NCBI GenBank assembly: GCA_040218735.1
Contig: JAVJQW010000017.1
Coordinates: 288,001 to 352,000, forward strand
DNA length: 64,000 nucleotides
Direction: 5' to 3'
Source: Deltaproteobacteria bacterium
GTDB taxonomy: Bacteria; Myxococcota; Kuafuiibacteriia; Kuafuiibacteriales; Kuafuiibacteriaceae
Position 1 is the stretch's first letter, and every line of letters begins with the position of its first letter. Position numbers and translations under genes: made by a program. This document shows, piece after piece, positions 1-45,213 of this stretch. The notes below the pieces were generated by a model that was given only the letters and a program-made list of their open reading frames with translations, did not search any database and was not told the origin of the DNA.

Positions 1-126
1 GCGCAGCTCGAGCGGCAGCTCGAAGCGATGCAAGCCGCCTTGCAGGCCGAGCTCACGGAAGCGGAGCTGTCCGGCTACGACATGGGCGAGCTGGATCCCG
101 AGGACGACCCGGGGGCCGGTTACTAG
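1..126 (+). CDS. sctL: 3' end of T3SS stator protein SctL/FliH-like (partial)
   Basis: Frame 1 reads AQLERQLEAMQAALQAE...GY*. This resembles the FliH/SctL C-terminal motif, and its stop overlaps the GTG of sctN. Confidence 0.6.
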   Translation, partial: AQLERQLEAMQAALQAELTEAELSGYDMGELDPEDDPGAGY

Positions 127-1445
127 TGGTCGCCGCCCCGATCGACTTCTCTCGATACGCGCGCCGGGTGCGCAAGACGCGCTTCACGCGCGTGCGCGGT
201 CGCGTGACGGAGATGACCGGCCTGATCATCAAGGCCGCGGTCCCGGGCGTGCGCATCGGGGAGCTCGTGGAGATCGTCAACCCGACGCACAGCCTGCAAG
301 CCGAGGTCGTCGGCTTCCGCGACAAGGAAGTGATGTTGATGCCCTTCGGGTTCCCGGAGGGCGTCGGTCCGGACTCGGAGGTCGTGCCCTACGGGCGGCC
401 GTTCGAAGTGCGCTGCGGCGAGGGTCTGCTCGGTCACGTCGTCAACGGTCTGGGCCAGCCGATCGACGGCGCGAGCCTCAGCGAGATCCGCGGGCTCGAG
501 GACTGGGCCGTGGAACGCACGCCGCCCGATCCGCTGGATCGTGAGCGCGTGCTGGAACACATCGCGTTCGGCGTGCGCGCGATCGACGGGCTGCTGACGA
601 TCGGTAAAGGTCAGCGCGTCGGGCTGTTCGCGGGCTCCGGTGTCGGTAAGTCGACCTTGATGGGGCAGATCGCCCGAAACACCGAGGCCGAGATCGTCAT
701 CTGCTGTCTGATCGGCGAGCGTGGTCGTGAGGTGAAGGACTTCATCGAGGAGTCGCTCGGTGAGGAGGGGATGAAGAAGTCGGTGGTGGTCGTGGCGACC
801 TCCGACGAGTCCTCGCTCGTTCGTCAGAAGTCGGCGTTCGTCTCCACCGCGATCGCGGAGTGGTTCCGCGACCAGGGCGCGCGGGTGTTGTTGATGATGG
901 ACTCGACGACGCGCTTCGCGCGTGCGCAGCGCGAGATCGGCTTGGCGGTCGGTGAGCCGCCGGCGCGCCAAGGTTATCCGCCGTCGGTGTTCTCGCAGCT
1001 GCCTCGGTTGTTGGAGCGCACGGGCAACTCGTCGAAGGGATCGATCACGGCGCTGTACACCGTCCTCGTCGCGGGCGGTGACATGGAAGAGCCGATCTCC
1101 GACGAGGTCCGCGGTATCCTCGACGGCCACATCATCCTCAACCGTGCGCTCGGCGCGCGGAACCACTGGCCGGCGATCGACATCCTGCCGTCCCTGTCGC
1201 GTGTCGCGACGGGCATCATCGCCCCCGAGCACCGCGAAGCGGCGGCGAAGCTCCGCGAGGTGCTCGCGACGTACGAGAAGCAGCGCGACCTCATCCTCCT
1301 CGGCGCGTACCAGTACGGCACGGACCCGGCGACCGACTACGCGATCGACAAGATCGACATGGTCGAGGCGTTCCTCCGGCAGCGCACCGAGGAGAACTCG
1401 CCGTTCGAAGAGTCGATCCAGATGCTGGTCGGCTTGTTCAACTGA
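126..1445 (+). CDS. sctN: T3SS ATPase SctN (FliI/YscN family)
   Basis: Walker A GSGVGKST, LIGERGREV, MDSTTRFARAQREIGL, GSITALYTVL and ILDGHIIL motifs. Confidence 0.96.
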   Translation: MVAAPIDFSRYARRVRKTRFTRVRGRVTEMTGLIIKAAVPGVRIGELVEIVNPTHSLQAEVVGFRDKEVMLMPFGFPEGVGPDSEVVPYGRPFEVRCGEGLLGHVVNGLGQPIDGASLSEIRGLEDWAVERTPPDPLDRERVLEHIAFGVRAIDGLLTIGKGQRVGLFAGSGVGKSTLMGQIARNTEAEIVICCLIGERGREVKDFIEESLGEEGMKKSVVVVATSDESSLVRQKSAFVSTAIAEWFRDQGARVLLMMDSTTRFARAQREIGLAVGEPPARQGYPPSVFSQLPRLLERTGNSSKGSITALYTVLVAGGDMEEPISDEVRGILDGHIILNRALGARNHWPAIDILPSLSRVATGIIAPEHREAAAKLREVLATYEKQRDLILLGAYQYGTDPATDYAIDKIDMVEAFLRQRTEENSPFEESIQMLVGLFN

Positions 1446-1456
1446 GGATTTCGACT

Positions 1457-1942
1457 TTGGCGAAGTACCGACTCCAGACCCTCCTCGAGATCCGCGAGCG
1501 CGCGGAGGAAGACGCCAAGCAGGCGTTCGCCGCCGCGATGGCGCAGCTCAAGCAGGAGCAAGATCTCTTGCAAGAGCTGAAGGACGAGCTCGAACGCATG
1601 ATCGAGGACCGTCACCGCCGCCGCGAGGAGTACGCGAACAAACTCGCGTCGGGGGAGATGAAGGTGACGGACCAGGCCGCCGCCTACCGCTTCATCGACC
1701 GCCTCAAGGAGAAGGAAGTCGAGCAGAAGGGGCGCATCGACGCGCAACGCGAGAACGTGCGCGAAGCCGAAAAGCACATGAAGCGCGCACAGGACGCGCT
1801 CATCCAGGCGACCCAGGACCTCAAGGCGCTGCAGAAGCACAAGGAGAACTGGGAGGCGCAGGTGAAAAAGGAACGCGCCATGCGCGAGGCCGAGCAGCTC
1901 GACGAGATCGCGCAGACGATCTACCAGCAGCGGAACAAGTAG
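1457..1942 (+). CDS. sctO: T3SS stalk protein SctO/FliJ-like
   Basis: 161-aa coiled coil directly after the ATPase, with YRLQTLL at the N-terminus and EQLDEIA near the C-terminus. Confidence 0.8.
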   Translation: MAKYRLQTLLEIRERAEEDAKQAFAAAMAQLKQEQDLLQELKDELERMIEDRHRRREEYANKLASGEMKVTDQAAAYRFIDRLKEKEVEQKGRIDAQRENVREAEKHMKRAQDALIQATQDLKALQKHKENWEAQVKKERAMREAEQLDEIAQTIYQQRNK

Positions 1943-2003: not shown

Positions 2004-2927
2004 TCAAGGGAGCTCGGAGACCACCACGCGGTAGTCCTGGCCGGCCGTCACGAGGTGGCCGCGGTGGAATGCGGCCGCCGTGACGTCGCGTCCACCGTGC
2101 ACCACGAAGGACGCGACGCGCTGACGCGCCTTCACGTCGATCACCGCGACCTCGCCGCCCGGCACGCCCACGGCGACACGCTGCGCATCGATGAACACCG
2201 GAGCGCTCCACGGGCGCTCGACCGTCCCCCGCGTCGCGTCGCGAACCACGACGTTGCCCTCCGGGGAGAGGTTCGTCTCGAAGGCGCCGTCGAAGCCGAA
2301 CACCGTGAGGTCGCGCGCGGTGAACGCCATGAGGTCACCGGTGGGCGAGGTGGCGATCGCGCTCATGCCGTCGGTGGGTTCCGCGATCTTCGGGCCTTCG
2401 ACACGGACGAGGTGATCACCTTCCAGCGCCGCGTACGCCACGTGGGAGCCGCCCTGGCGGACCGCCGCGCAGACCAGGCGGGTGCCGTCGAAGGCGAGCG
2501 AGACGTTGCGCTCGCCGCCGAAGCTCTCGAGCGCGACGGTCTCGTCGCCGAAGAGCCAGAGGATCTCTGCGTCCCCGACCGCCGCGACGCGGTCGCCGAC
2601 GAAAGTCACCGCCTGCACCTCGTGGCCGGCGGGTTTGGCGATGATCCGGACGCGCTCGCCGGCTTCGACATCCCACACCTCGATGTCCCCCGCGCCCACG
2701 ACGACCGCGCGGCGACCGTCGAACGCGCAGTCGTGCACGATGTCGAGATCACACTCGAGGCGGTGACGAAGCGTGAAGTCGTCGCCCCACACGAAGAGCG
2801 TCCCGTTGGAGTCGGCGCCGACGAGCGTCGTGCCGTCCTCGGAGAAACGGAGCGCGACGATGTGCTCGACGTCGTCTTCGATGACCCGACCCACGTTGGA
2901 CGTGACCTTAGCAGCTACGAAATTCAT
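2004..2927 (-). CDS. WD40-like beta-propeller protein, putative immunity protein
   Basis: Repeated blade motifs (LFVWG, IEVWDVEAG, AVTFVG, LVTAGQDYRVVV). Starts 10 bp after the toxin stop, with a GAGGG ribosome-binding site. Confidence 0.6.
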   Translation of the reverse strand: MNFVAAKVTSNVGRVIEDDVEHIVALRFSEDGTTLVGADSNGTLFVWGDDFTLRHRLECDLDIVHDCAFDGRRAVVVGAGDIEVWDVEAGERVRIIAKPAGHEVQAVTFVGDRVAAVGDAEILWLFGDETVALESFGGERNVSLAFDGTRLVCAAVRQGGSHVAYAALEGDHLVRVEGPKIAEPTDGMSAIATSPTGDLMAFTARDLTVFGFDGAFETNLSPEGNVVVRDATRGTVERPWSAPVFIDAQRVAVGVPGGEVAVIDVKARQRVASFVVHGGRDVTAAAFHRGHLVTAGQDYRVVVSELP

Positions 2928-2937: not shown

Positions 2938-5900
2938 TCACTGGTGGAAGACTTCGATCTGGACGTTCGGATAGTCCGTCCGGAACTTCGACATCACGCG
3001 CTGACACGACGGGCACGGCGGCAGCTCCGTGAAGATCCGCAGCCGCGCGTCGGCGCCCTTCGGCAGCTTCGACAGCGCATCGTTCACCAACCCCATCAAC
3101 CGCACCTCGGAGTCGTTCATGCGCGACATCTTGTGCTGCCCGGGCACGTCCTCCAGCACCCGCGCCTCCGCCTCGTACGGGTTCCCGGGCACCCCTTCAT
3201 CGGGACCGCCACCGCTCCGACGCGGACCGATCGGCTGCCGCACACCGTCGACCTCCAGCTCCGCGTACGCCCGGTTCGGCTTCTCACCGTCCGGGAGCTT
3301 CAGCTTCTTCACCTCCTCGACGGGGTTGCGGTCGAAGGCGCCAGGACGTGCGTCCGAGATCGGCGATACCTCGATGCCGGCGGTCTTGCGGATCGACTCG
3401 TACATCGCCTGCTGCGACGCCTTGTACTCGTCCATGAACGCCTGACGCGTCGCCTTCTCGTTGGCCTCCCACGTCTCCTTCGCGCGCTGCGCCTGCGCGA
3501 GCTCCTCGTCGGAGAGCCGGCCCGGCGGGCGCTTGGGTTTGTCACCCATCGTCCCGTACTCGGTCGCGAGGCGGCGGCTCTTCTCACTCGCGCTGAGGAA
3601 CTCACGCGCGGCGGATGCGTTGGCGTCCGTCGGGTTCTGCTCGACGAGTTTCTTTGCGAGGCGGACGTCCTCCGCCATGCCCTCGACGCGCTTGCGCTGA
3701 CTGGCCGCCTGTTTGCCGGTGTGTGGCCACTGATCGAGCGCCCGGTCGAGATCCTTCCCGGCGACGTCGAGCTGTTTCAGGATGTCGTCGGCGAAGGTCG
3801 ACGGCTTGAGCTTCGCGCGCTCCGGAGCGTCGAGCTTCTTGGGCGCCGGTCCGTCGACGTCCGCCTTCGCCTTACCGCGCCACAGGCGCCCCAGCCCGTT
3901 CGTCGCGCCCTGCGACAGCGGGTTGAGGATCGCGCCGAACGCAGCGCCGCGGAGCCCGTTCATGTTCGCTTCGCTGAGACTCTTGCCGTCGAGCAGCGAG
4001 TTGGAGGTCCCGACGATGTAACCATCGACAGCGCCCTCGCCGATCGTCGTGCCGCCCCAGATGCCGGCGCGTGTGAGCATCGAGACGCTCTGCCCGGTTG
4101 CCAGCTTCGTCGCCTGGTTCGCGAGCATCCGCTGCGCGGCCTGACGCGCGAGCATGTTCGTGCCGGTCGCCGACAGCCCGTTGATCCCACCCTTGAGCAG
4201 ATCGAGGGCGACGTTCCCATCGTACTCGCCGCTCCCGGTCCATGCGTCGAGGCCCTTCGTCCCGACCTTCGTGATCGCACCCGCCGCCGCGCCGACGAGC
4301 AGCGACGCACCACCGGTGAACGGCGCCGCCGCGGCCGCGGTGAGCGCGACGCCCACGGATGCGAAGTCCGAGATTCCTTCCACCCAGTTGCTCTGCGACT
4401 TCTGGAAGCGCTGGATGTGATCCGGGACCGCCTGAATCTTGTCGTTCAGGTTCGTGACGCGGTCGCGGTACGCCTTCACGAAGTCTTCGTGCGAGCCCTT
4501 GAAGTTCGCGAGGTTCTCGACGTCGCGACGCGCGCGGTACGCGTCGTGAATCGTTCGCACGACCGCGTTGCTCCCGAGCTCGGAGTCGATCAGCCACCCA
4601 TCCTTGCTGCCGAGGTTGTTCTTGATCGCATCGGCGAGGTCACCGACGACCCCCTGCTCGCGCAGGATGCGGTCGAACGTACGGTCGAGCCGGTCGACCT
4701 CCTTGCCCACGTTCTCGACGAGGCTCTTCCGCAGCTTCCCCTCGAGCTGCTCCACGGAGAACCGCGTGTAGTCCTCGCTGACCTGCGCGTGCTGTGCGTC
4801 GGACAGGTCGTCCATCGACTTCTTGAGGTAGGGGATCGGGTTGTTCGGCTCGGCGCGCGCGGCCTTCATCCGCTCCGCGATGTCCGAGTCCTCGAGCCCC
4901 GCGGCGCGCATCTCACGCTCGTCGCGGTAGTACAGCTCGGAGGTCGGCGCGGGAGACTTCACCTCTGGCGCCGTCCAGGTCGGCGCCGCCTTCCGCTCGC
5001 CGAACAGCCCGGAGTCGAGTGAGAAGTCGTGTTTCTTGCTCGGGTGGCAGTCGTAGCACTTCTCGCCGGTCATGAGGCGCGACAGCTGCGCCGGGTCGAG
5101 CTGCGGACGCTGAGCTGCTTCGTGCTGCTGTACCCGCTCGCGGAATCCTTCGAACGAGTTGGGATCGCGATCGAACAGCTCTCCGTTGTCGCGTTTGTAG
5201 CCGTCGATCTCCGACAGCGCGCGGAAGCGGTCGTAGCTACTGACCTTGGAGATGTCCTTGCCGGCGACGTCGGCGAGGAACGCTTCGCGGTCGACGCCGT
5301 AGAACGGGCTGTCGTCGCCCCAACCGTTCTTCGTGTACTCACTGTCGAGGCGCGCGTGGTGCGGACGAATCTTCTTGTCGAGCTCCTTCAGGCGGAAGTT
5401 CGCGACGTGATCGTCGTAGACCTGCCGTTGCTCGGCGGTCATCTGCTCCGGCTGGATCTTCAGGCGCTGCCGCGGGTCGCCGTTCGACAGCTCGAGCCGG
5501 AAGCGCAGCGCGCTCTCGTCCTGGTAGCGCTTCGCGAGCTGGTCATACTGCTCGGTGCCCTTCCGCACGCTGGGGTGATCGGTGCGGATCTTGTTGTCGA
5601 TCGCGGTGTCGAGGCGTTCGCGAGCGCCGGCGTGGATGTCGCGGAGGGTGTTGGCCTGCGTGAAAGGCGACGACAGCGAGAACGGCTCGGTCTTCTTGTC
5701 GGGGTGGCAGTCGTAGCACTTCTCGGTGTTGGCGAAGATGTTCCGGCGATCGATCCGGTCGAGCCGGTCGTCCGGCTCGACCGCGGTGTCCTTCGACGCC
5801 CACTTCGCCGGGTCGAAGAGCCGCGCCTGCTCTTCGCGTGAGTAGAACAGGTCGTCGTGCCCGGGCTGCACGCCGGTGACCGGGTCGTAGGTGTTCGCGT

Positions 5901-6981
5901 CCGCCGGGCGATGCGCACGGATCGTCGACAGCGCCGCCTTCGAGTCGCGGTGGGAGAGGTCGGAGACCGGCGTCTGCTCGAGCTGCGAGATGAACTGCTG
6001 CGTCCCCTCGGACATCGGGCGCCGCACGAGGTCGTGGGCGAGCTGCTGCATGCGCTCGCGCGACTCGGGCGCGAGCTCCTTCGCGCGCGAGGCCTCCTGC
6101 AGGCGGTTCGACTCGCGCAGCCGGAAGTCACGCTCGTACTTACGCGCCTGCGGCATCTCGTCGGCGGCGAGGCGATCGGAGTAGCGCTGCGCCTCTTCGG
6201 CGCGCTCCACGGGGCTCATGCCCTGGACGGTCGATTCGAAGCCACGGTCGAGCTCGGCCCGGACCGCGTCGTGGTTCACCGGCTTCGGGCCGACGCGTTC
6301 CGTAGGCCGGAACTTCGCGAGCGCCGAGAAGTCGAGCGGGGTGAAGTCCTCCTTCTTGTCCGGGTGGCAGTCGCGGCAGTCGACGCTGTTCCGCAGCGGA
6401 TCCCGGAACGGGTTCTTGGTGAGGGACTGAAGGGCGTCGGTCGGCTGCGGCTTCTCCTTCGTCTTCGCGAGGTAGTCCTCGAGGCTGCGGATCTGTCGAT
6501 CCATCGTGTCCTTGAACTCGGCGTCGTTGTTGCGGCGGTGGCGGTCGTGGAGCTGTTGGTAGGTCGGGAGTGCATCACTCGGCGTGGTGTCGCTCCGCGT
6601 CTTCTCCTCCTCGGCCGGCGCCCGGGTTTGGACGGGCCGCCCCTCGGCGAGGTGTGTCTCGGTTCGGCGGAGCTCCGTCGCTTCGTCCGTGACCTGACGT
6701 TCCGGTTGCTCGCGAACCTTCGGCCGCTCTGCGCCGGTGGTGTGATCCTGTTTCGCGACGCGTTGGTCCGCATCGTTGGCGGGCGGCTGGTAGTCGTCGC
6801 CCTTCGCCTCCGGCGTGCCCTTCGCGCCTCCCGCGCCGCCCTGCCCCGCTTTGTCGCCCGACTGCGGCGGTGGCGGTGGTTTGGTCTGCTCCTCTTGTTT
6901 CTTCTTCTCGATGCGCTGGAGCGCGAGCGCGATCCGGTCTTCTGCGGTCCCACCGAGGGGAAGTGCATTCACGGGCGGCAT
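2938..6981 (-). CDS. Large polymorphic-toxin-like protein: three CxxCH repeats, a hydrophobic segment and a C-terminal nucleic-acid deaminase (BURPS668_1122/Toxin-deaminase-like)
   Basis: C-terminus RMNDSEVRL...IFTELPPCPSCQRVMSKFRTDYPNVQIEV; hydrophobic segment AAAAAPFTGGASLLVGAAAGA. The start was moved to ATG 6981 because the longer ORF overlaps sctP antisense. Confidence 0.8.
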   Translation of the reverse strand: MPPVNALPLGGTAEDRIALALQRIEKKKQEEQTKPPPPPQSGDKAGQGGAGGAKGTPEAKGDDYQPPANDADQRVAKQDHTTGAERPKVREQPERQVTDEATELRRTETHLAEGRPVQTRAPAEEEKTRSDTTPSDALPTYQQLHDRHRRNNDAEFKDTMDRQIRSLEDYLAKTKEKPQPTDALQSLTKNPFRDPLRNSVDCRDCHPDKKEDFTPLDFSALAKFRPTERVGPKPVNHDAVRAELDRGFESTVQGMSPVERAEEAQRYSDRLAADEMPQARKYERDFRLRESNRLQEASRAKELAPESRERMQQLAHDLVRRPMSEGTQQFISQLEQTPVSDLSHRDSKAALSTIRAHRPADANTYDPVTGVQPGHDDLFYSREEQARLFDPAKWASKDTAVEPDDRLDRIDRRNIFANTEKCYDCHPDKKTEPFSLSSPFTQANTLRDIHAGARERLDTAIDNKIRTDHPSVRKGTEQYDQLAKRYQDESALRFRLELSNGDPRQRLKIQPEQMTAEQRQVYDDHVANFRLKELDKKIRPHHARLDSEYTKNGWGDDSPFYGVDREAFLADVAGKDISKVSSYDRFRALSEIDGYKRDNGELFDRDPNSFEGFRERVQQHEAAQRPQLDPAQLSRLMTGEKCYDCHPSKKHDFSLDSGLFGERKAAPTWTAPEVKSPAPTSELYYRDEREMRAAGLEDSDIAERMKAARAEPNNPIPYLKKSMDDLSDAQHAQVSEDYTRFSVEQLEGKLRKSLVENVGKEVDRLDRTFDRILREQGVVGDLADAIKNNLGSKDGWLIDSELGSNAVVRTIHDAYRARRDVENLANFKGSHEDFVKAYRDRVTNLNDKIQAVPDHIQRFQKSQSNWVEGISDFASVGVALTAAAAAPFTGGASLLVGAAAGAITKVGTKGLDAWTGSGEYDGNVALDLLKGGINGLSATGTNMLARQAAQRMLANQATKLATGQSVSMLTRAGIWGGTTIGEGAVDGYIVGTSNSLLDGKSLSEANMNGLRGAAFGAILNPLSQGATNGLGRLWRGKAKADVDGPAPKKLDAPERAKLKPSTFADDILKQLDVAGKDLDRALDQWPHTGKQAASQRKRVEGMAEDVRLAKKLVEQNPTDANASAAREFLSASEKSRRLATEYGTMGDKPKRPPGRLSDEELAQAQRAKETWEANEKATRQAFMDEYKASQQAMYESIRKTAGIEVSPISDARPGAFDRNPVEEVKKLKLPDGEKPNRAYAELEVDGVRQPIGPRRSGGGPDEGVPGNPYEAEARVLEDVPGQHKMSRMNDSEVRLMGLVNDALSKLPKGADARLRIFTELPPCPSCQRVMSKFRTDYPNVQIEVFHQ

Positions 6982-7206
6982 GTCGCGCAAGATGAGTTGC
7001 AATGCCCGGCCCGCCGCCCAAGCTCGCGAACTTCGGTGTGTCGGCGGCGGACCTGTAGCGCGCGCCCCTCGGACCTGCGGCGTCGGCGCCCGTGGGGCGA
7101 CGTGGGCAGATGAAGGCCTTGGTTGGACCCGCACCGACGTCCCCAACGGAAAATGCTCGTGAAACCGGGGTCTTGGACCGTTCGTCCAGCGCGCCGAGAT
7201 TCGGAA

Positions 7207-7234
7207 GCAACGAAGCACAACGAACGATCGATAA
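7207..7234 (+). promoter_or_regulatory. Putative sigma28-like promoter of sctP
   Basis: GCAA-N16-ATCGATAA, compared with the FliA consensus TAAA-N15-GCCGATAA. A GGGAG RBS and ATG 7258 follow. Confidence 0.45.
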
Positions 7235-7257
7235 TCCCCATCAAAGGGAGCCGTTGC

Positions 7258-8139
7258 ATGAGCCGCGTCGACGACAACAGCGACAACCGCCGCATCCGCG
7301 AGATGAACGAGGCGGCGCACAACAAGAAGATCCGCAACGAGAAGAAGAGCGCCGAGGCCCGGGGCGAGCAGACGTTCCGCGAGGTCATGCAGAAGAAGGC
7401 GCGCACCGAGACCGCGCAGCGGAACCAGGCCAAGGAGACGGAGAAGGAGAAGGGGGCCGAGGGTGAGTCGGTGCTCGACCGCATCCGCAAGCGCGCTCCG
7501 AAGAAGAGCGTCGAGCGCGACCGCCGGCAGGCGCTGCAGCGCTCGATGCAAGGTGGCTTGCTCAAGAAGAAGGCGCTCAAGGCCGGCGAGGACGCCCGCG
7601 CCGAAGCCGCCCGCGGCGAGGAGCTGAAGACCGGCGCAGACAACGAGCTCGAGCGCGTCGAAAAGGAAGTGCGCAAGGAAGACGAGCACGAGACGGTGCG
7701 CAGCGACGAGAAGCAGGCCGAGGTCATGCAGGAGGCCCGCGCCGACGTCCCGACCGAACGCGCCGACCCCGACGGTCGCCGCCAGCAGCGCCAGAGCCAA
7801 GGCAAGTCAGGCGACGGGAGGGACAACAACGCGCAGGCCATCCAGAACGCGCGCCGCGCGGGCCGCCCGGCGATCCCGCAAGAGGTCCTGCAGCGTCTGG
7901 TCTCCGCGATCTACAAGGCGGTCAACGCCGACGGGCGCACCAGCATGCGCATCACCCTCAAGGGCGGAAAGCTCGAGGGCGTCACGGTCGACATCAAGTC
8001 CGAGGGCGGCAAGGTGAGTTGTGAGTTCGGCAACTGCCCGAAGGAGCTGAAGTCGATGCTGAAGAAGGGCACCTCGCAGCTGGCGAAGGGCCTGTCGCGG
8101 CGAGGGTTGAAGCTCGAGCGACTCAGCGTCCGCGACTAA
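7258..8139 (+). CDS. sctP: Needle/hook-length control protein SctP/FliK-like
   Basis: Charged, disordered N-terminus plus a C-terminal FliK/T3S4-like domain (SMRITLKGGKLEGVTVDIKSEGGKVSCEF...LSRRGLKLERLSV). Lies between sctO and sctQ in gene order. Confidence 0.7.
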   Translation: MSRVDDNSDNRRIREMNEAAHNKKIRNEKKSAEARGEQTFREVMQKKARTETAQRNQAKETEKEKGAEGESVLDRIRKRAPKKSVERDRRQALQRSMQGGLLKKKALKAGEDARAEAARGEELKTGADNELERVEKEVRKEDEHETVRSDEKQAEVMQEARADVPTERADPDGRRQQRQSQGKSGDGRDNNAQAIQNARRAGRPAIPQEVLQRLVSAIYKAVNADGRTSMRITLKGGKLEGVTVDIKSEGGKVSCEFGNCPKELKSMLKKGTSQLAKGLSRRGLKLERLSVRD

Positions 8140-9212: not shown

Positions 9213-10499
9213 CTAACGCGCCGTCACGAGCATGTTCGCGACGCACATCTCGTCGCCGGTGCCTTCACCCCAATTCACGTCGACCGGCTCCTGTCCGCGG
9301 TCCTGGTTCGCCGCCGAGTTGTCGAAGGTGCAGTTCAACATCAGCGCGTCGCCGTCCAGGACTTCGAGCGGCTCCGACAACACGTACTGGCGCTGCCAGT
9401 TGAAGTCCCAGTTCTGAATGTTGAGGAAGTTCGTCTCGAACCCGCGCCGCACGCGCGACACACGTCCGACCTCGCCGAGCTGGTGCATGTGGAACATCAC
9501 CGCGTGCACCTCGAACCCATCGTCGAACGGGAGCGTCTCGCCCGCGACGAGATCGAAGAAGCCCCGCGGGTCCTCCTCGATCTCGTGCTCGACCGCAGAC
9601 TCACCCGCGGGGATCTGCATGAAACCGAGCGGCCACGACACGTCGAGGAACGGCGCGTACCAACCTTCGCGCTCCACCGAGTCCTCGAGCGAGAAGACCA
9701 ACCGACTCTGGTCCGGCGCCGGGTCGTCGCCGACCACGTTGTAGTGCATCTGGATCACCACGGTGGACCCCGGCTTCACGCGGATGCCGATGCCGTTCGG
9801 GTACACGTTGCCGCTCTGCCCCGGCAGCCACGCGCCCAGCTGCACGATCGGGATCGCTTCGCGCCCGCCCGACGGTCCGCCGAAGCACTCGTAACCCGGG
9901 CGCTCGTCTTCCTCGTTCCAGACGAACGGCTTCTCCGCATTCTCCGGCGGCAGGATGAACACGCCGACGTGGTGCACGATCTCCAAGTTCCCCGGCATCA
10001 CCGACAGCGCCGTCACGAACTTGTCCGCGGTCTCCGTCCACCGCACCGGGAAACAACGGTAGTCGTCGGGCCGCCCCGTCGGGACGTACGGTTCGGGGAG
10101 CTGCAGCTCCAGGTCGACGCCCGGGAACGCGGGCTCGGTCGGCGGGAGCGCGTCTCCCGGCGACGACGCGTCACCCATCTCCATCCCTTGATCGACCCAG
10201 TCGACGATCGTCTGGATCTGCGCGTCGGTGAGCGAGACGTCTCCGTCGTAGGTCACGTCGGACGGACCGGCCGACCACGGCGGCATCTGACGCGACGTCA
10301 CCGCCATCGCCACCGCGGGACCGAACGCCTTCACCTTCTCGAAGTCGTCGAGCCCGAACGGCGCGATCGCCCCCTCGGCGTGGCAGCTCGTGCAACGCCC
10401 CTCGACGATCGGGCGGACATCCCGGTAGTACGTCGGTGCCCCCTCGGAGCACGCGACGAGCGCGAGGGCGGCCACCGGGACCAACGATGAACGGGACAC
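9213..10499 (-). CDS. Copper type II ascorbate-dependent monooxygenase-like lipoprotein with an N-terminal cytochrome c motif
   Basis: LVAC lipobox, CTSCH heme motif and copper-ligand motifs HH, QMHYN, HMH and DEMC. Confidence 0.8.
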   Translation of the reverse strand: MSRSSLVPVAALALVACSEGAPTYYRDVRPIVEGRCTSCHAEGAIAPFGLDDFEKVKAFGPAVAMAVTSRQMPPWSAGPSDVTYDGDVSLTDAQIQTIVDWVDQGMEMGDASSPGDALPPTEPAFPGVDLELQLPEPYVPTGRPDDYRCFPVRWTETADKFVTALSVMPGNLEIVHHVGVFILPPENAEKPFVWNEEDERPGYECFGGPSGGREAIPIVQLGAWLPGQSGNVYPNGIGIRVKPGSTVVIQMHYNVVGDDPAPDQSRLVFSLEDSVEREGWYAPFLDVSWPLGFMQIPAGESAVEHEIEEDPRGFFDLVAGETLPFDDGFEVHAVMFHMHQLGEVGRVSRVRRGFETNFLNIQNWDFNWQRQYVLSEPLEVLDGDALMLNCTFDNSAANQDRGQEPVDVNWGEGTGDEMCVANMLVTAR

Positions 10500-10549
10500 G
10501 GGCGGGAGCTTGCCGGGGCTGGCAAGACCTGAACACCGGTCGACGATCG

Positions 10550-11059
10550 GTGCTCCCGATCCTGCTGACCCTCGCCGCGTGCTCCGGAAACTCCGCGCCC
10601 CCCGAGCCCGTCGCGCTGATCGATCACGCCGCCTGGGTGACGGGGCGCGTCGAGGTCGATCCACAAGGCCTGCACGCGCCGGATCCGATCACCTGCGCGG
10701 CCGGCACCTACCACGTGGACGGGCTCCCGCCGTTCGAGACCTTCGAGGTCACTACGGGCGACTGCAACTTCCTCACGGCCTCCCAACGGACGCTCGCCCC
10801 CGTCGAAGCCGGCGACGCGCTCCGCCTGATCGTCTGGCACCTCGACCTCGACGCGACGCTCCCCGGCCCCGCGCACGCCGCAATCTCGATCGACGGCGAC
10901 ATCCTCTGGGAGCTGAACGTCGACGTCCCGTCGGACGCGGCGCTCTACGATGTCCGAATCGACGCTCCACGTGCGTTCACCCGGGACGCCGACATCGTCT
11001 TCCACGTGCACAACCACGGCACGAACGAGTGGAACATCCAGACCGTCGAGCGGCGCTGA
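10550..11059 (+). CDS. Hypothetical lipoprotein (HVHNHG motif)
   Basis: LAAC lipobox; His-rich C-terminal motif; divergent from the monooxygenase. Confidence 0.6.
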   Translation: MLPILLTLAACSGNSAPPEPVALIDHAAWVTGRVEVDPQGLHAPDPITCAAGTYHVDGLPPFETFEVTTGDCNFLTASQRTLAPVEAGDALRLIVWHLDLDATLPGPAHAAISIDGDILWELNVDVPSDAALYDVRIDAPRAFTRDADIVFHVHNHGTNEWNIQTVERR

Positions 11060-15299: not shown

Positions 15300-16940
15300 T
15301 TGAACGCACGTCCACCACCTCCGCCGCCGGCGTCGATGGTCGATGTGTCGGCCTACACCCGGCAGTCGCGCACCTACGAGCCCAACGACCCGGAGATCCG
15401 CGGCAAGAAGGTCCGGCGGTTTCGGCTCGACGAGCTCGAGCGGTTCCCGCGCGAGGTGCGCGACATCCACCGCGCGCTGTTTCGGATCATGCCGGAGCTG
15501 GTCTTTGCGGACGACTTCGTCCCGAAGGTCCGCAAGGTGCTCCAGCAGTACACCGAGATGGACATCGACCTGTGGATGCACTCGATGCGGGTCGTCGGGC
15601 GCACCAAGCTCCGGTCCCTGATACCGGGCGCCTCGTTCATCGCGATCGTCGGGCTGCCGCCGCTGCACGAGAAGGTGCTCGTCGAGATCGATCTGAGGTT
15701 CTGCTACCGCGTCGTCGACGCCCTCCTCGGCGGGCGGGGCGTCACGGTCGACATCCACCGGCCGCTGACGGAGATCGAGCACGGCGTCTTCTCCTACCTC
15801 CTCCTCAAGGTGCTCCAGCTCTTCTACGGCGACCTCGCCAACCCCGAGCAGATGGGGGTGCGGCTCGAGGACATGCGCAACGACCTCAAGAGCTGCGCCG
15901 ACATCGTCCGGCACGACGACTTCTGGCTCGTCGCGTCGTGGAAGATGAACTTCGACCTCGACGTCGGCTACGTCCGCGCGCTGATGCCCACTTCGCTCGC
16001 GCGTAAGATCGTCGACGAGCACCCGCCGCCCGGCTCGGCGCTGCAACAGCGCATGCACGACCGCATCCGGCAGCGCATGTACCGCCTCGCCGGCGTGACG
16101 GTGGAGGCGCCGGTGGAGATCGGGCGCATCGAGCTGTCACCCGACGACGTCGAGCAGCTCGATCCGGGCGACATCATCCTCCTCGAGAACTGCAGCGTGC
16201 AGCTGTCCGAGGAGGGGGTGTACGGGACGGCGGTGATGACCGTCGGGCTCGGTGACAACGGCGTCATCCACGGCAACGTCGGAGCGGGCGGGCACTACGG
16301 CAACCTCGTCTTCGAGGTGACGCAGCTCGAGATGCGTCCGCAACCCAAAGAGCACGACCCCCAAATCATTCACGGAGAGCACGGGAACCCAGAAGAGGTC
16401 ATGGCCGAATACGAAGCACCGCCCCCCGGTGAAGAGGGGTACGAAGAGGACTACTACGACGAAGCCGACGACGGCTCGACGACGCCGGACGACGTGCTCG
16501 ACGAGGACTGGGGCATCGACGACGAGGACCACGGCGAGGACGAAGAGTACGGCGACTACGAAGAGGGCTACGAGGAAGGGTACGAAGAGGGCTACGCCGA
16601 AGAGGGGTACGAAGAAGGCTACGCCGAAGACGGCCAGCAGCAGGAGTACTACGACGAGGCGAACGCCGAGGACGTGCCGATCGACGACTCCGACAACCTC
16701 ATGGAGGCGGAGCCGCTCCTCGGGGACATGCCGATTCACGTCGTCGTGGAGCTCGGACGCGTTCAGCTGACGGCAGACGAGGTCATTCGCCTCCGCGCCG
16801 GTCAGCTGATGGAGCTCGGACGCTCGCCCGCGGATCCCGTAGACTTGGTCGTGAACGGCAAGCTCCTCGCGAAGGGTGAGCTCGTCGAGATCGAGGGCGC
16901 GCTGGGCGTGAAGATCCTCAACCTCGTGAAGGAGACGTGA
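15300..16940 (+). CDS. sctQ: T3SS cytoplasmic ring protein SctQ (FliM/FliN-like) with an acidic insertion
   Basis: FliM-like RPLTEIE; two SpoA domains (LDPGDIILL; VDLVVNGKLLAKGELVEIEGALGVKI). Confidence 0.88.
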   Translation: MNARPPPPPPASMVDVSAYTRQSRTYEPNDPEIRGKKVRRFRLDELERFPREVRDIHRALFRIMPELVFADDFVPKVRKVLQQYTEMDIDLWMHSMRVVGRTKLRSLIPGASFIAIVGLPPLHEKVLVEIDLRFCYRVVDALLGGRGVTVDIHRPLTEIEHGVFSYLLLKVLQLFYGDLANPEQMGVRLEDMRNDLKSCADIVRHDDFWLVASWKMNFDLDVGYVRALMPTSLARKIVDEHPPPGSALQQRMHDRIRQRMYRLAGVTVEAPVEIGRIELSPDDVEQLDPGDIILLENCSVQLSEEGVYGTAVMTVGLGDNGVIHGNVGAGGHYGNLVFEVTQLEMRPQPKEHDPQIIHGEHGNPEEVMAEYEAPPPGEEGYEEDYYDEADDGSTTPDDVLDEDWGIDDEDHGEDEEYGDYEEGYEEGYEEGYAEEGYEEGYAEDGQQQEYYDEANAEDVPIDDSDNLMEAEPLLGDMPIHVVVELGRVQLTADEVIRLRAGQLMELGRSPADPVDLVVNGKLLAKGELVEIEGALGVKILNLVKET

Positions 16941-17521
16941 TGAAGACGCGCGCTGCTCTGCTCTGCCTGTCGCTGTCGCTGGTGTGGACCGCACCGGTGT
17001 TCGCTCAGGCCGACGGAACAGCGAACGGGACGGCGCCGTCCACCGTCGCGGCCGAGGTGCCCGACGCGGCCGGGGACCCGTCGATGGATCCGGAGTTCGC
17101 CGCCGCGCTCGCGGAGGCGGAGAGCGCCGACGTCGAGAAGACCAGCACCGCGGACGCGACCGAAATGTTCGGCGCATTGGTCCAGATGGTGTTGGTCCTG
17201 GCGGTGGTGTGCGCCCTCGCCTATCTGTTGCTCGGCAAGGTGTTGCCGAAGCTCATGCGCGTGCAGACGCCGACGGCGCCGCACCGCATGTTGGAGGTCG
17301 TGGATCGGCTGCCGCTCGATCCGCGCCGTTCGATCATGGTCATCAAGCTCGGCGAGCGCTTCTTCCTGGTAGGCGCGACCGAGCAAGGCATCAATCTCCT
17401 CTCACGCCTGGAGACGGAAGAGGTGGAGGACGCGCTGGCCTCGGCGGCCGCCCGGCGCGACTCGACATCCCTCTCCCGCTTCGCGGGCAACCTTCTTTCA
17501 CGTACGAGGAAGGAGTCCTGA
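16937..17521 (+). CDS. fliO: FliO-like protein
   Basis: Signal peptide, a TM helix, then LEVVDRLPLDPRRSIMVIKLGERFFLVGATEQGINLL; lies between sctQ and sctR. Confidence 0.8.
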   Translation: MMKTRAALLCLSLSLVWTAPVFAQADGTANGTAPSTVAAEVPDAAGDPSMDPEFAAALAEAESADVEKTSTADATEMFGALVQMVLVLAVVCALAYLLLGKVLPKLMRVQTPTAPHRMLEVVDRLPLDPRRSIMVIKLGERFFLVGATEQGINLLSRLETEEVEDALASAAARRDSTSLSRFAGNLLSRTRKES

Positions 17522-17522
17522 C

Positions 17523-18491
17523 GTGTTCATGAAAGCTGTGACCTCGGTGTTCGGGGAGCGGAAGAAGTCGCGCCGCGAACGCCGGCTCGCGCTGCGGAAC
17601 GAGACCCCGCGGCGGCGTTGGCGTCGACCTCGCGTCGAACCGCCGCGACCGCGACGGGGGATGCGCAACCCGCAACGCTCCGCGGCGAAGACCGCGCTGT
17701 TGTTGACCGCGGCGATCTCCGCTGGGGCGATCACCGCGACGGCGTTCTCTTCGGACGCCGAAGCTCAGCAGCGTCGGCGCCGCCGGGTGAAGACCTCGGA
17801 CCTGACGCTGAAGGGTTCGGTGATCGCGCGTCCGCTGGTGCTCATCGGAGCGCTCGCGGTCCTCACGCTGCTGCCGTTCGTGATCATCATGATCACGAGC
17901 TTCGTGAAGATCTCGGTGGTGCTGTCGATCGTACGCTCGGCGATCGGTACGCAGCAGATCCCTCCGACTCAAGTCATCACGGGCCTGGCGATCATCCTGA
18001 CGGTGTACATCATGGCGCCGGTCGGCCTGGAGATTTATCGAGAATCGGAGAACCTCATCAACGAACGAAGACCGGGTTCATCGCTGGCATCTGCCGAGAC
18101 GGTCGACCTGGTGTTCGAGGCGATGCTCCAGGCGAAGGAGCCGGTGAAGGCGTTCCTGATGAAGAACAGCCACGTGAAGGATCGCGTGATGTTCTACCGG
18201 ATGGCGGTGCGGCTCCGTAAGCCGGAGGACCAGAAGGGCGTGGGGCCGGAGGACTTCATGGTCATCGTCCCCTCCTTCGTCATCTCGGAATTGAAAGAAG
18301 CCTTCCAGATCGGCTTCATCATATTCGTGCCGTTCTTGGTGATCGACATGATCGTCGCCAACATCCTCATGGCGCTCGGCATGCAGATGTTGTCACCGAC
18401 GACGATCTCACTGCCATTCAAGTTACTCCTCTTCGTGATGATCGACGGTTGGTACCTCATCACGAAGGGGCTCATCACGGGGTACATCTGA
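17523..18491 (+). CDS. sctR: T3SS export gate SctR/FliP
   Basis: TSFVKISVVLSIVRSAIGTQQIPP, SELKEAFQIGF and SLPFKLLLFVMIDGW motifs. Confidence 0.95.
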   Translation: MFMKAVTSVFGERKKSRRERRLALRNETPRRRWRRPRVEPPRPRRGMRNPQRSAAKTALLLTAAISAGAITATAFSSDAEAQQRRRRRVKTSDLTLKGSVIARPLVLIGALAVLTLLPFVIIMITSFVKISVVLSIVRSAIGTQQIPPTQVITGLAIILTVYIMAPVGLEIYRESENLINERRPGSSLASAETVDLVFEAMLQAKEPVKAFLMKNSHVKDRVMFYRMAVRLRKPEDQKGVGPEDFMVIVPSFVISELKEAFQIGFIIFVPFLVIDMIVANILMALGMQMLSPTTISLPFKLLLFVMIDGWYLITKGLITGYI

Positions 18492-18763
18492 TGGTCGAAG
18501 ACTTCATCATCCAGATCGCCAACGCCGGGATCTTGTTGACCCTGGTGATCTCCGGGCCGCCGGTGCTGTTCTCGCTGCTCGTCGGTCTGATCATCGCGCT
18601 GTTCCAGGCGGTGACGCAGGTGCAGGAGCAGTCGCTGACGTTCGTGCCGAAGGTCATCGTGGTGTTCGGGACGCTCGCGGTGATGGGCCAGACCCTCGGG
18701 AGCTCGATGGCGCAGTTCGGGCGCATGTGCTTCGAGGGGTTCGCCACCGTCATCGGCAACTGA
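18491..18763 (+). CDS. sctS: T3SS export gate SctS/FliQ
   Basis: GLIIALFQAVTQVQEQSLTFVPK; TGATG coupling with sctR. Confidence 0.95.
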   Translation: MVEDFIIQIANAGILLTLVISGPPVLFSLLVGLIIALFQAVTQVQEQSLTFVPKVIVVFGTLAVMGQTLGSSMAQFGRMCFEGFATVIGN

Positions 18764-18765
18764 CC

Positions 18766-19251
18766 GTGCCCGTCGCTCGTCCTCTGATGGCCGCCGTGGT
18801 GAGCGCGACGATCGCGCTCGCGGCGCCGTCGTCCGCCTCGGCGCAGGTGGAGGGGGACGGGGTGATCGTGACGACGGCGGTGCTCGGGACCATCGCCGGG
18901 ATCACCAACGCCATCGCGGTCACGGTGTACGCGGTCGAGGGCCGTGCGCTCGGGAGCGGGTGGGTGGTGAGCACGCTGTTCTCCACGGCGATCTGCGGAG
19001 CGCTCACAACTTCGTTCATCGTCGCCGCGGCGCAGAACGACGGCGTGGGTTACTCGATCGGGACGCTGTTCTACGCCCTACTCACCGTGTGGCCCGGGTA
19101 CTACGTCATCCGCTCGTCCTTGAGCGAAGCCGAGCCGGGTGAGTACTTCGACGCGGAGGTCGCGCCCGACGACACCGAGGACCCGATCTCCTCGCTCACC
19201 CCCGCGCCGCGACGCTTGCCGACGGCGTTGGCTTGGGGCTTCGAGTTCTGA
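18766..19251 (+). CDS. Hypothetical membrane protein inside the sctS-sctT junction
   Basis: Signal-like N-terminus and about three hydrophobic helices; its stop overlaps the sctT ATG. The start could be 18787. Confidence 0.6.
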   Translation: MPVARPLMAAVVSATIALAAPSSASAQVEGDGVIVTTAVLGTIAGITNAIAVTVYAVEGRALGSGWVVSTLFSTAICGALTTSFIVAAAQNDGVGYSIGTLFYALLTVWPGYYVIRSSLSEAEPGEYFDAEVAPDDTEDPISSLTPAPRRLPTALAWGFEF

Positions 19252-20075
19252 TGGGTGCGTTCGGCCAGCTCTCCGACCTGATCGGTCTGCGCGGTCCGCT
19301 CTCCGACACGCTGTTGATGGGCGTGCTGGTGTTGATGCGCATCGTCCCCATCATCTTCCAGACGCCGTTCCTCGGCGGAAAGCTCGTCCCGCCCGAGACC
19401 CGCATCGGTCTGTCGGTCGGGCTCGCGGTCCTCGTCTTCCCGTTCGCCAAGTCCGGGATGGACGGACCGCTCGACGTCAACTGGCTCGCGTTCCTGATCC
19501 TGCTGTTGAAGGAGCTCTTCTTGGGCTTCGTGATCGGCTTCGTCGCGACGGAGCTCTTCCTCGCGATGGAGATCGCAGGCCGCGGCCTCGACGTTTTGCG
19601 TGGCTCGAACATGGCCGAGGTGCAGGTCCCCGAGCTGCAGCTTCGTGTGTCCCCGATCGGTCAGTTCAACTTCCAGCTCCTGCTCGTGGTGTTCTGCGGG
19701 CTCAACGGGCACGGCCACTTCATCGAGAGCGTGATCAAGAGCTACGAGATGGTGTCGATCGACAAGTGGCCGGGCTTTTCGGCGGCCGGCTTCCAGACCT
19801 TCGTCGACGGCATCCTCATGTACACGGGCGACCTGTTCGCGGTCGCCTTCGGGCTGGTGTTCCCGGGCATGTTCGCCGCGTTCCTCGTCGACGTCGTGTT
19901 CGGCATGTTCAACCGCATCGCGCCGCAGCTGAACGCCTACTTCATGGCGATGGGTGTGAAGGCGCTCTCCGGCCTCATCATGTTCATGTTCGCGATGTCG
20001 CTGATGGTCGCGCAGATGGGACACCGCCTCGAGGAGTCGCTGCTGTTCATCCGCCGCATCGTGGCGTTCTTCTGA
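19251..20075 (+). CDS. sctT: T3SS export gate SctT/FliR
   Basis: TPFLGGKLVPPETRIG, EIAGRGLDVLRG and NRIAPQLNAYF motifs. Confidence 0.93.
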   Translation: MGAFGQLSDLIGLRGPLSDTLLMGVLVLMRIVPIIFQTPFLGGKLVPPETRIGLSVGLAVLVFPFAKSGMDGPLDVNWLAFLILLLKELFLGFVIGFVATELFLAMEIAGRGLDVLRGSNMAEVQVPELQLRVSPIGQFNFQLLLVVFCGLNGHGHFIESVIKSYEMVSIDKWPGFSAAGFQTFVDGILMYTGDLFAVAFGLVFPGMFAAFLVDVVFGMFNRIAPQLNAYFMAMGVKALSGLIMFMFAMSLMVAQMGHRLEESLLFIRRIVAFF

Positions 20076-29279: not shown

Positions 29280-30278
29280 TCAGACGTCCACGGTGTCGCG
29301 GCCCTGCAGCTCGTCGATCGCCGAGGTCATCGCGCGCTCCAAACCGGCGGCATCGACCTCCGTGATCGCGAGGCCCTTGTTGGCCGTAGTCCGCAACCAG
29401 AACACACTCCCCGGGACGGGGATGAGCGTCGCGTCCCGCACGAACCAGTCGCCGGGCCCGAAGTCGAACCGTGTCAAAACGAAACGTGTCTTGGTCGCGA
29501 TGCCCCGCGCGAGATCGGCGAGGTAGCTCCGGAGGATCCAGTTGCCGCGGTCCTTGGACAGCACGTCCTTGGCGACGAGCGCGTCGAGGGCCTTCTGCCA
29601 CGCCGCTTCGTCCGGGACGGCGAGGCTGCCGGACGTCTCGGCCGCTTCCCCCGGTGTAAAGCGCGCGCGGCGCCCGGGCATGAGGACGGCGCCGTCCATC
29701 GTGGGGTCGAAGACACTGCGGGCGGGGCGCTTGGGGCCGAGCGAAGCTTCGCCGTGCAGGACGAGCTCCTTCGCGAAGCACACGAGCGCGTAGTACTCGG
29801 CCGACGTGAGCTGAAGCTCGATGAAGTCGCCGGTCGATCGCCGCGGCGAGAACTTGGTCCGAACCTCGTCGAGGATGTCGACCTCCTCGAGCGGCGGACC
29901 GATGTGGTGTTTGCTGCCCGAGCGCCGGTAGGCGACGTACGCGCCGGCCCGCAGGTACACGTCGAGGACGCGCTCCGCGCTGGCCGGGGAGGCGTGCAGG
30001 AGCACGACCCGGGCGTCGGGCTCGGAGACCACGAGCAGCCGGCGGACGATCTCGCGGTGCGGGCGGTACGTCCGTCGGTCCGCGAGCCCGCGGCGAACGA
30101 GGGTCCGTGCGCCGTTCTCCAGACGCTCCGGATCCACTTCGATCTGTAAGGGACCGAGGGGCGACTCGTCGTCGGTCGACAGCTCGCAGGTGAGCCGCAA
30201 CAACAGCAGCTCGTCGTCGGACAGCTCGACCTCCGAAGCAGGGTCGATCGCTTCCGAGCTCGACGCGGACGCGGACAC
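29280..30278 (-). CDS. Hypothetical protein with EspG-like pattern
   Basis: The C-terminal part of the 846-aa ORF that does not overlap sctU. It has two pseudo-repeats: 'ELSDDELLLL...RTLVRRGL' and 'QLTSAEYYAL...DALVAKDVL'. Confidence 0.55.
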   Translation of the reverse strand: MSASASSSEAIDPASEVELSDDELLLLRLTCELSTDDESPLGPLQIEVDPERLENGARTLVRRGLADRRTYRPHREIVRRLLVVSEPDARVVLLHASPASAERVLDVYLRAGAYVAYRRSGSKHHIGPPLEEVDILDEVRTKFSPRRSTGDFIELQLTSAEYYALVCFAKELVLHGEASLGPKRPARSVFDPTMDGAVLMPGRRARFTPGEAAETSGSLAVPDEAAWQKALDALVAKDVLSKDRGNWILRSYLADLARGIATKTRFVLTRFDFGPGDWFVRDATLIPVPGSVFWLRTTANKGLAITEVDAAGLERAMTSAIDELQGRDTVDV

Positions 30279-30338
30279 GTAACGACGAGGTTTAACACGC
30301 TTTGTGTAGCGCGTCGCGCATGGGGTAGCTTCGACTTC

Positions 30339-31548: not shown

Positions 31549-32004
31549 ATGGCGGACATCAAGCAGAAGTGGCCGTGGCCGGCGAACGTCGGCACGCTCG
31601 GGACCTTCCCCGAAGAGGTCCACTCCCAGAAGAAACTCGAGAAGGACCTCGCGGCGTCGCCGATGCCCGAGCTGGCCCCGGAGCGGCTGCTCACGCCGAA
31701 GCGGTCGAGCGACAACCTACGGATGGGCGAGCCGGCGCCGGTGTACCCGGAGGGCCAGGAGCCAGTGCAGCTGGCGTTGACGCACGTGGTACTGCGGCGC
31801 CTGCTGATGAAGCGACGCAAGCGGGGTTGGAACCTGTTCGAGTCGTCGGTCGAGGACGAGGTGCTCGACGATCTGCCCGGCTCGCGACGCGACCAGATGC
31901 GCGCGATGCTGAAGCGTGAGAACGCGATGCTGCAGCTGTTGGAGCGCTACAACTCACTCGCGGAGATGGTCTACAGCCGGCTGATCGGCGAGGCGAAGGG
32001 CTGA
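31549..32004 (+). CDS. Hypothetical T3SS protein, possibly SctX/YscX-like
   Basis: Coupled between sctU and a TPR gene; Pro-rich N-terminus and a helical C-terminus ending in KG. Confidence 0.45.
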   Translation: MADIKQKWPWPANVGTLGTFPEEVHSQKKLEKDLAASPMPELAPERLLTPKRSSDNLRMGEPAPVYPEGQEPVQLALTHVVLRRLLMKRRKRGWNLFESSVEDEVLDDLPGSRRDQMRAMLKRENAMLQLLERYNSLAEMVYSRLIGEAKG

Positions 32005-32720: not shown

Positions 32721-32865
32721 ACTCCACGCCGATGACCGGAAGCGATGAAGCAACGTTCACGGTACGGTTGTGGTGATAGCACCGTGAAATGTTCGGACTC
32801 AGGAAGGTCCGGTAGATTGGCAACACGCGACGCTTCGAAAGCGACGCACTGAAAGGAAGACAAAA

Positions 32866-34100: not shown

Positions 34101-34140
34101 GGATGAGCCGGGTTCGCCCCTTCGGGTGCCCGGCTCGTCC
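34101..34140 (+). terminator. Strong hairpin (terminator or mRNA stabiliser)
   Basis: GGATGAGCCGGG pairs with CCCGGCTCGTCC; there is no U-tract. Confidence 0.55.
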
Positions 34141-34238
34141 CTGCCCCTCCCCTCTCCCCTTCACCTCCAACCAGGACTCCCCGGACCGCGGTGGCCCCGC
34201 GGCACGCGCAGGTTTTTGCGATTTCCTGGGGGGATGCT

Positions 34239-35015: not shown

Positions 35016-35147
35016 GCGCTCGGCTGCTTCGCGCGCGCCCTGGGACCGGGAACCCGAAAGATCGAAACTGGGGCCGGGGGATGGGAACTTGAATTGGGCG
35101 TGTAGTTGAGCAATCGCCTGTAGATCGGCCATCCTACCCCCCACCCG

Positions 35148-45126: not shown

Positions 45127-45213
45127 CCCCCCGAGATCCCCTAGTCCTCGGGCGGTCGCCTCCACCGGGTCGTAAAGTTACCTCAAACCCGGAGGCGCGC
45201 TATGGTTGAGCCG

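Follow-up and report, generated by a model that had tools for sequence, protein, structure and literature searches.

A signal-less polymorphic deaminase toxin with conserved CxxCHP linker motifs in a type III secretion gene cluster

Introduction

CxxCH is the attachment motif of haem c, and cytochrome c maturation is periplasmic. Here we analyze a toxin gene whose 1347-residue product carries three CxxCH motifs. It lies in a 64,000-nucleotide stretch of a Deltaproteobacteria bacterium genome (Myxococcota; contig JAVJQW010000017.1, positions 288,001 to 352,000), referred to below as the window. The toxin shares with c-type cytochrome haem sites (PSCyt1, Cytochrome_C7, Haem_bd) the invariant Cys-x-x-Cys-His and weak local matches in the flanks. 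Unlike those cytochromes, it has no Sec signal and no conserved distal ligand, the matches fall below cutoff and span 15-40 residues, and the motifs sit in linkers between helical modules that match no PDB fold. Since the motif is selected and conserved and yet the toxin lacks a Sec signal, the compartment paradox for CxxCH is real. Why a protein without a signal should strictly conserve a haem-type motif is a clean and inexpensive biochemical question, informative whichever the answer.

By kind, the closest described systems are polymorphic toxins with deaminases of the BURPS668_1122 clade (Iyer et al. 2011, PMC3239186; Zhang et al. 2012, PMC3482391; statements on both refer to excerpted text). 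Deaminases of this clade have DxE in helix 2 and CxxC in helix 3 and are often truncated past helix 3 (PMC3239186). The window toxin resembles these proteins in its PF14424 C-terminus, its DSE and PCPSC motifs, its end soon past the CxxC helix, a trunk with interchangeable C-termini, and a downstream open reading frame (ORF) separated by a small gap at the usual position of an immunity gene. It differs from them in that Pfam found no known trafficking, repeat or pre-toxin domain in its trunk, and in that the downstream ORF resembles WD40 proteins instead of Imm2, Imm3 or SUKH. The secretion routes given for the clade in the excerpts of PMC3239186 are the type II, V, VI and VII secretion systems (T2SS, T5SS, T6SS, T7SS), a terminase-based route and SPVB; the type III secretion system (T3SS), in whose neighborhood the window toxin is encoded, is not among them. 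Zhang et al. 2012 (PMC3482391) contains no mention of 'heme' or 'WD40', and of three 'haem' matches in it the one displayed is 'haemagglutinin'. The window toxin is of a known kind, with an undescribed trunk and an undescribed conserved CxxCHP linker element.

For the neighborhood, the nearest parallel is the T3SS* of Myxococcus xanthus, which, according to excerpts of two papers, has no secretin, needle or translocon, and whose effectors, still unnamed, are proposed to be relayed onward by a Tad pilus 'like a T2SS' (PMC10849154, PMC12075869). The window resembles it in a non-flagellar core (SctN, O, P, Q, R, S, T, U and V), a large interspersed cluster and a high-GC genome, and the signal-less toxin encoded inside the cluster may be likened to the unnamed effectors. 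By this analogy we infer that the window T3SS, covered here from inside sctN onward, could be of the T3SS* type. If the toxin is exported by this T3SS, it would give a first handle on the cargo of clusters whose effectors remain unnamed in predatory myxobacteria.

A third comparison is with hydrophobic T3SS translocators and their SycD/LcrH-class chaperones. Like the toxin, they have a long helical region at the N-terminus and a hydrophobic hairpin in the middle, and they lack a Sec signal; two SycD-like TPR proteins are encoded in the window cluster. Unlike the translocators, the toxin carries a C-terminal enzymatic domain, and no sequence or fold similarity to them was found.

Three CxxCH motifs in the toxin

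A preliminary description of this DNA had reported three CxxCH motifs at an exact 660-bp period within the toxin. We found the peptides CRDCHPDKK, CYDCHPDKK and CYDCHPSKK in the toxin translation, with codon starts at 6378, 5718 and 5058 (residues 202, 422 and 642; spacing 220/220 aa) and His codons ending at 6364, 5704 and 5044, exactly as given there. The faint similarity it saw between the units was borne out as well: the 220-aa units are pairwise 21-24% identical by BLAST, and hhalign pairs PVSDLSHRDSKAALSTI with DISKVSSYDRFRALSEI across units. Its remark that the protein lacks a signal peptide agrees with a hydropathy scan, in which no Sec-type hydrophobic stretch was found at the N-terminus (top mean hydropathy over any 12 residues within the first 60 aa, 0.47); relatives have the same signal-less N-terminus.

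The toxin contains 8 Cys and 26 His, and the expected CxxCH count at such composition is 0.0009. In 20,000 shuffles, at least one CxxCH appeared in 14 and two or more in none, which excludes chance as the source of three. All 6 cysteines lying outside the deaminase domain belong to the motifs. A DNA repeat finder recovered a 49-nt family in the same 660/660 register as the motifs; its copies are just 71-73% identical over 49 nt, ruling out recent duplication or gene conversion.

The repeat family has a fourth copy, 61% identical, at 6517-6565. This copy, 174 nt upstream of motif 1, coincides with the LPTYQQLHDRH segment conserved across the family and could be a degenerate extra site or a chance match in GC-rich DNA.

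Sub-threshold Pfam matches of 15-40 residues to Cytochrome_C7, Haem_bd, PSCyt1, Paired_CXXCH_1 and Tll0287-like families were centered on the motifs of the toxin and its relatives, the best matches of the motif flanks reaching 21.4 bits (Haem_bd) and 21.1 bits (Cytochrome_C7). A family alignment showed no conserved fourth ligand, distal His or distal Met, and no invariant His, Met or Cys elsewhere in helical modules A or B. A zinc finger or zinc ribbon was rejected, as each motif offers just Cys, Cys and His and the trunk has no other invariant Cys or His. Asp follows the His-Pro in 15 of 19 full-length motif instances, but mimicry of the J-domain HPD was rejected: DnaJ was not matched at any E-value up to 1, and the relative P0030 lacks the Pro.

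The motif is conserved among relatives and the exact spacing is not

An exhaustive HMMER search of 1.84 billion clustered proteins with aa 150-870 as query (E up to 0.001) found 34 representatives; a word-indexed search found 7. The trunk matches no Pfam family, PDB sequence or PDB fold. At least one CxxCH was present in 10 of the 37 proteins retrieved, and 27 had none. Across nine relatives (P0002-P0009 and P0032), C-x-x-C-H-P was intact in all 20 instances while the flanks varied, followed by Asp, Ser or Asn, basic residues and a loose D-F-x-L. Even the distant P0030, 27-32% identical over aligned stretches, retains CTTCHS heading its equivalent of module A.

The spacing behaved differently. 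Only the window protein and the 96%-identical P0002 have 220/220, the sole exact pair. P0003, P0004 and P0005 have three motifs spaced 221/223, 219/225 and 217/222 aa; P0006, P0007 and P0009 have two, spaced 217, 199 and 218 aa; P0008 has one and P0010 none. In relatives at 56-69% identity the spacing was 217-225 residues. Copy number therefore varies (3/2/1/0) among proteins with otherwise conserved trunks. Motif 3 lies in a segment of ~70 residues present in the window protein and P0003-P0005 and absent from P0006-P0010. The check in homologs that the preliminary description had called for thus came out divided: the motif is conserved, and the exact spacing, ranging over 199-225 aa, is not. 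On the evidence of these alignments, selection maintains CxxCHP in this part of the family but not its exact period.

The remaining 44 loci of a genome scan (L002-L045) belong to Melainabacteria (Gastranaerophilales, Vampirovibrio). Their proteins, of ~700-2600 aa, have only the central domain in common with the toxin (aa ~760-1030 of the window protein), and they resemble another branch of the toxin family, one that lacks CxxCH and shares the central Gly-zipper domain.

Many of the Melainabacteria relatives have a recurrent N-terminus, roughly ..QQKIQQYRQ.NP.L..LSDEQILSI.., and C-termini of varying length. In L002, L005, L015 and L018 a ~135-aa ORF of no recognized family directly follows the family gene. 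In L012 (9416-17260) a 92-aa ORF with masked bases comes directly after a 1952-aa family member, and next to it is a FliI/SctN-like ATPase that appears to be an orphan.

The period reflects the length of helical modules

Comparing alignment slices with hhalign, we found modules A and B homologous (probability 96.6%, E 6.9e-10, 83 columns) and likewise B and C (probability 98.3%, E 2e-14, 47 columns); A and C have only the motif in common. Measured from their motifs, the homologous cores of A and B are ~19 residues out of step, which means that different internal indels add up to the same total of 220. The period of ~220 aa is, as these alignments indicate, the length of a module, and its exactness in the window protein is coincidental. 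The length-constrained ruler that the preliminary description had offered as one explanation does not survive this offset and the restriction of 220/220 to the window protein and P0002: an exact 220-aa ruler has no biological reality. A molecular ruler of the FliK/SctP type was rejected on the 199-225 aa range in relatives.

AlphaFold2 (AF2), run on aa 165-700 with a 20-row alignment, gave a model with a mean predicted local distance difference test (pLDDT) score of 77.6. It has two confident all-helical modules, and each of the three motifs is in a linker of pLDDT <50 that precedes a helical module. The central domain, aa 690-1060, was modeled as long helices plus a low-confidence hydrophobic part. 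Foldseek against the PDB (E up to 0.001) returned no match for either the repeat model or the central-domain model. Searching PDB sequences by profile likewise yielded no meaningful match for the central domain. A feature search of the ESM Atlas gave no usable match.

Architecture of the toxin gene and protein

The window is 68% G+C, and all three motifs are held by a long minus-strand ORF at 2938..7800, with 0.86 G+C at third codon positions in the toxin frame. Its first 273 codons lie antisense to a gene on the plus strand and resemble high-GC read-through. The ATG at 6981 is the sole Met among its first 420 codons and opens an N-terminus, MPPVNALP, that is common to relatives; as the only plausible start it was taken as the toxin start, giving a coding sequence of 2938..6981 on the minus strand. 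All toxin features below are on that strand.

In order, the protein comprises a disordered N-terminus, three helical modules, a hydrophobic hairpin domain and a C-terminal deaminase. The N-terminal region (aa 1-201; 6379..6981) is rich in Pro, Gly, Lys and Glu (model residues 10-54 have pLDDT <50) and includes an LPTY motif around aa 139 that is conserved across the family. Motif 1, CRDCHP (aa 202-207; 6361..6378), lies in a linker before the core of module A (aa 234-399; 5785..6282), an AF2 block of pLDDT 90-98. Motif 2, CYDCHP (aa 422-427; 5701..5718), likewise in a linker, precedes the core of module B (aa 446-609; 5155..5646; pLDDT about 85-97), which contains the family-wide signature Y..NGW..DS.[FW]YGVD. 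Motif 3, CYDCHP again (aa 642-647; 5041..5058), also lies in a linker, within the lineage-specific segment.

Module C and the central conserved domain together cover aa 690-1060 (3802..4914), the sole part in common with the Melainabacteria relatives. Within it, hydropathy marks a Gly/Ala-rich hydrophobic segment (aa 870-903; 4273..4374) as a candidate membrane-inserting hairpin. This segment sits in the best-conserved part of the family, where AP.TGGAS..G..GA..KVG is near-invariant.

A deaminase C-terminus and a downstream WD40-like ORF

The C-terminus matches PF14424, the BURPS668_1122-family deaminase, at aa 1281-1346 (2944..3141; E 2.2e-13, 51 bits against a cutoff of 29.6) and carries DSE (DxE) and PCPSC motifs. 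Apart from the sub-threshold cytochrome matches, this is the sole Pfam family in the toxin, and an NCBIfam scan added no other. The deaminase C-terminus recurs in P0002 (from precomputed Pfam annotation), P0004 and P0005. P0009 ends instead in an APH-like kinase fold, and the C-termini of P0006-P0008 and P0010 are unrelated and of no recognized family. With a conserved trunk, interchangeable C-termini and a deaminase with its catalytic motifs, the protein is, by its sequence, a polymorphic toxin.

A 307-aa ORF on the same strand (2004..2927) begins 10 nt past the toxin stop codon. Its sub-threshold WD40/beta-propeller Pfam matches and its position make it a candidate immunity protein, although it belongs to no known immunity family.

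The toxin gene lies within a type III secretion cluster

The toxin gene and the WD40-like ORF, both on the minus strand, sit between sctN/sctO and sctP. The ATPase gene sctN (3..1445, plus strand) runs off the window start and is followed by sctO, encoding a YscO-like stalk protein (1457..1942, plus strand; PF16789, E 2.6e-25). A sctP/FliK-like gene (7123..8139, plus strand; PF02120) is divergent from the toxin gene. Further along lie sctQ (15300-16940), a FliO-like gene (16880-17521), sctR, sctS and sctT (17523-20075), sctU (30150-31547) and sctV (35124-37307; 844 bits against a cutoff of 692). Two SycD/LcrH-like TPR proteins, both below cutoff, are chaperone candidates (31920-32525 and 34107-35015). 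SctV, SctR and SctQ scored above the NCBIfam cutoffs of injectisome models, which identifies the cluster as a non-flagellar T3SS; these matches and that of the YscO-like protein rule out a flagellar cluster. No secretin or needle gene was recognized within the window, which begins inside sctN.

A homolog of the toxin gene in a locus of a metagenome-assembled genome (L001, equivalent to P0003, 68% identity) also has a sctP-like gene divergently upstream; it is the only close relative with genomic context. From this arrangement we infer that the toxin may be exported by the neighboring T3SS. The other cluster ORFs of no known family (249, 156 and 433 aa) showed no similarity to the toxin family.

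Several further observations concern the cluster. Its core (sctN, O, P, Q, R, S, T, U, V and the FliO-like gene) is spread over ~37 kb (window 3-37307) and interrupted by genes for a Cu monooxygenase-like protein, an ASH/DUF1573 Ig-repeat protein, an SDR, a TetR regulator, an ADYC-domain protein, MsrA and a TonB-dependent receptor. Near the toxin/sctP pair, a copper type II monooxygenase-like gene is conserved between the window (9213-10664, minus strand) and L001 (2-1183). The 433-aa ORF (32788-34089), Met/Gly-rich and flanked by both SycD/LcrH-like candidates, has one hydrophobic stretch, a helical C-terminus and no recognized family, and could be a T3SS substrate akin to a filament protein or a translocator.

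What the motif may do

We tentatively favor the reading that each CxxCH works autonomously as a site for a cofactor, a metal or redox chemistry, vacant while in the cytoplasm and brought into its final state only once exported, although we would not call this reading probable. Invariant Cys, Cys and His, the absence of a fourth or distal ligand, variable copy number and flexible linkers favor an autonomous chemical site over a clamp or ruler; that copy number varies with the trunk conserved argues in particular against a paired clamp. On this proposal, the Cys-x-x-Cys-His would stay reduced in the cytoplasm of the producer, carrying no ligand and remaining unfolded, and in this state the motifs would allow the 1347-aa toxin to pass a narrow export gate of the T3SS type. 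Once out of the cytoplasm, each motif would load haem or a thiophilic metal, or oxidize; this would stiffen the linkers between modules, and the hydrophobic hairpin domain would then deliver the C-terminal deaminase. The identity of the cofactor and the timing of its loading are conjectural parts of this scheme. Among the candidate chemistries, haem c appears to fit the residue pattern best, and the T3SS context weakens the objection to it from the absent Sec signal, as T3SS*-like export would place the cargo in the periplasm. This would be another way around the compartment paradox than the processing in the target cell envelope that the preliminary description had suggested.

Several points weigh against this reading and against its secretion context. 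The motif is dispensable in some relatives: site 1 of P0010 is CTDGHP and site 2 is lost, and site 1 of P0008 is degenerate. CxxCH occurred in 0 of 44 Melainabacteria ORFs (L042 being represented by 7 aa only). No cytochrome family attained its curated cutoff in Pfam scans of the window protein and relatives or in the NCBIfam scan of the window protein. The low confidence of the linkers may partly reflect alignment depth, as AF2 used 20 sequences. The link to the T3SS comes from one lineage, the window and L001, and the toxin gene, on the strand opposite to sctO and sctP, could be an unrelated insertion. In Melainabacteria, the six Pfam-annotated loci are mostly in housekeeping contexts, and a FliI/SctN-like ATPase lies near 2 of the 44 loci, the one in L018 among housekeeping genes. 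The invariant Pro after the His is, to our knowledge, not required of haem c sites.

More specific versions of the chemistry each seemed unlikely. If the motif binds true c-type haem, the toxin would cross the inner membrane through a needle-less T3SS*-like gate in place of Sec and be unfolded in the periplasm of the producer, where the cytochrome c maturation system (ccm) would load each CxxCH with covalently bound haem to yield a tri-haem toxin. Such a route would suit the strict retention of CxxCH, even in P0030 without the Pro, the autonomy and variable number of the sites, their predicted location in unfolded linkers, as expected of apo sites, the weak resemblance of the flanks to several haem-c families and the position of the gene within a T3SS cluster; the M. 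xanthus T3SS* proposal, in the excerpts cited (PMC12075869, PMC10849154), implies a periplasmic stage. We nevertheless regard it as unlikely, given that no ccm or ccs genes were seen within the window, most of the genome lying outside it, that no cytochrome domain exceeded cutoff, that no distal ligand is conserved, and that the 433-aa ORF between the chaperone candidates may be a filament or translocator, which makes the needle-less type uncertain; nor did a literature search find a precedent linking CXXCH with type III secretion or polymorphic toxins. The spacing of CxxC is classical for redox-active pairs, and a thiol-disulfide switch would work by an intramotif disulfide, absent in the reducing cytoplasm and formed in the periplasm or outside, that shifts linker conformation while His-Pro tunes thiol reactivity. 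The autonomy of the sites, their place in linkers and the confinement of all non-catalytic cysteines to the motifs would agree with such a switch. A simple disulfide does not need the His and Pro, however, and these are as invariant as the cysteines (20/20); no thioredoxin-like fold surrounds the motif, and P0010 retains His-Pro yet loses the second Cys, leaving the switch equally unlikely.

Two further explanations dispense with chemistry at single sites. A partner such as an export chaperone, a sorting platform or a receptor of the target envelope could repeatedly bind a short linear motif, a 35-residue element of the form [LFM][ALMF]..G.KC..CHPDKK..F.L. Repeated copies in disordered linkers, semi-conserved hydrophobic positions at -6/-5 and +12 to +18, the two SycD/LcrH-like chaperone candidates and the beta-propeller encoded just downstream would accommodate this, but strict Cys-x-x-Cys-His conservation is typical of chemistry rather than peptide docking, and we judge docking a rather unlikely explanation. 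In an inter-motif zinc clamp or length ruler, CxxCH motifs of different linkers would jointly bind Zn and fix a 220-aa loop. The window protein does offer three evenly spaced Cys2His sets, and near relatives stay within 217-225. Across relatives, however, the period runs from 199 to 225, copy numbers of 3 and 1 leave unpaired motifs, the module cores are ~19 residues out of register, and AF2 does not bring the linkers together. The spacing and the register offset largely refute the clamp, which we consider very improbable.

Returning to the autonomous site, its boldest form would make the toxin a candidate for the first recognizable cargo family of a myxobacterial-type needle-less T3SS, with genuine haem c linkers matured in the producer periplasm without a Sec signal. 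We regard this combination as quite improbable. If true, it would mean that Sec-independent cytochrome c maturation feeds a toxin, whose solvent-exposed haems could bait the haem uptake receptors of prey or act as peroxidase-like centers.

Other genes in the window

Beyond the secretion cluster, the window contains a giant ORF of 2150 aa (45145-51597, plus strand) with an N-terminal PilZ domain and a C-terminal Hsp70-like domain. Two adjacent ORFs of about 1240-1310 aa (55489-63014, plus strand) both carry DUF3857, to which the first adds TPR and transglutaminase-core domains.

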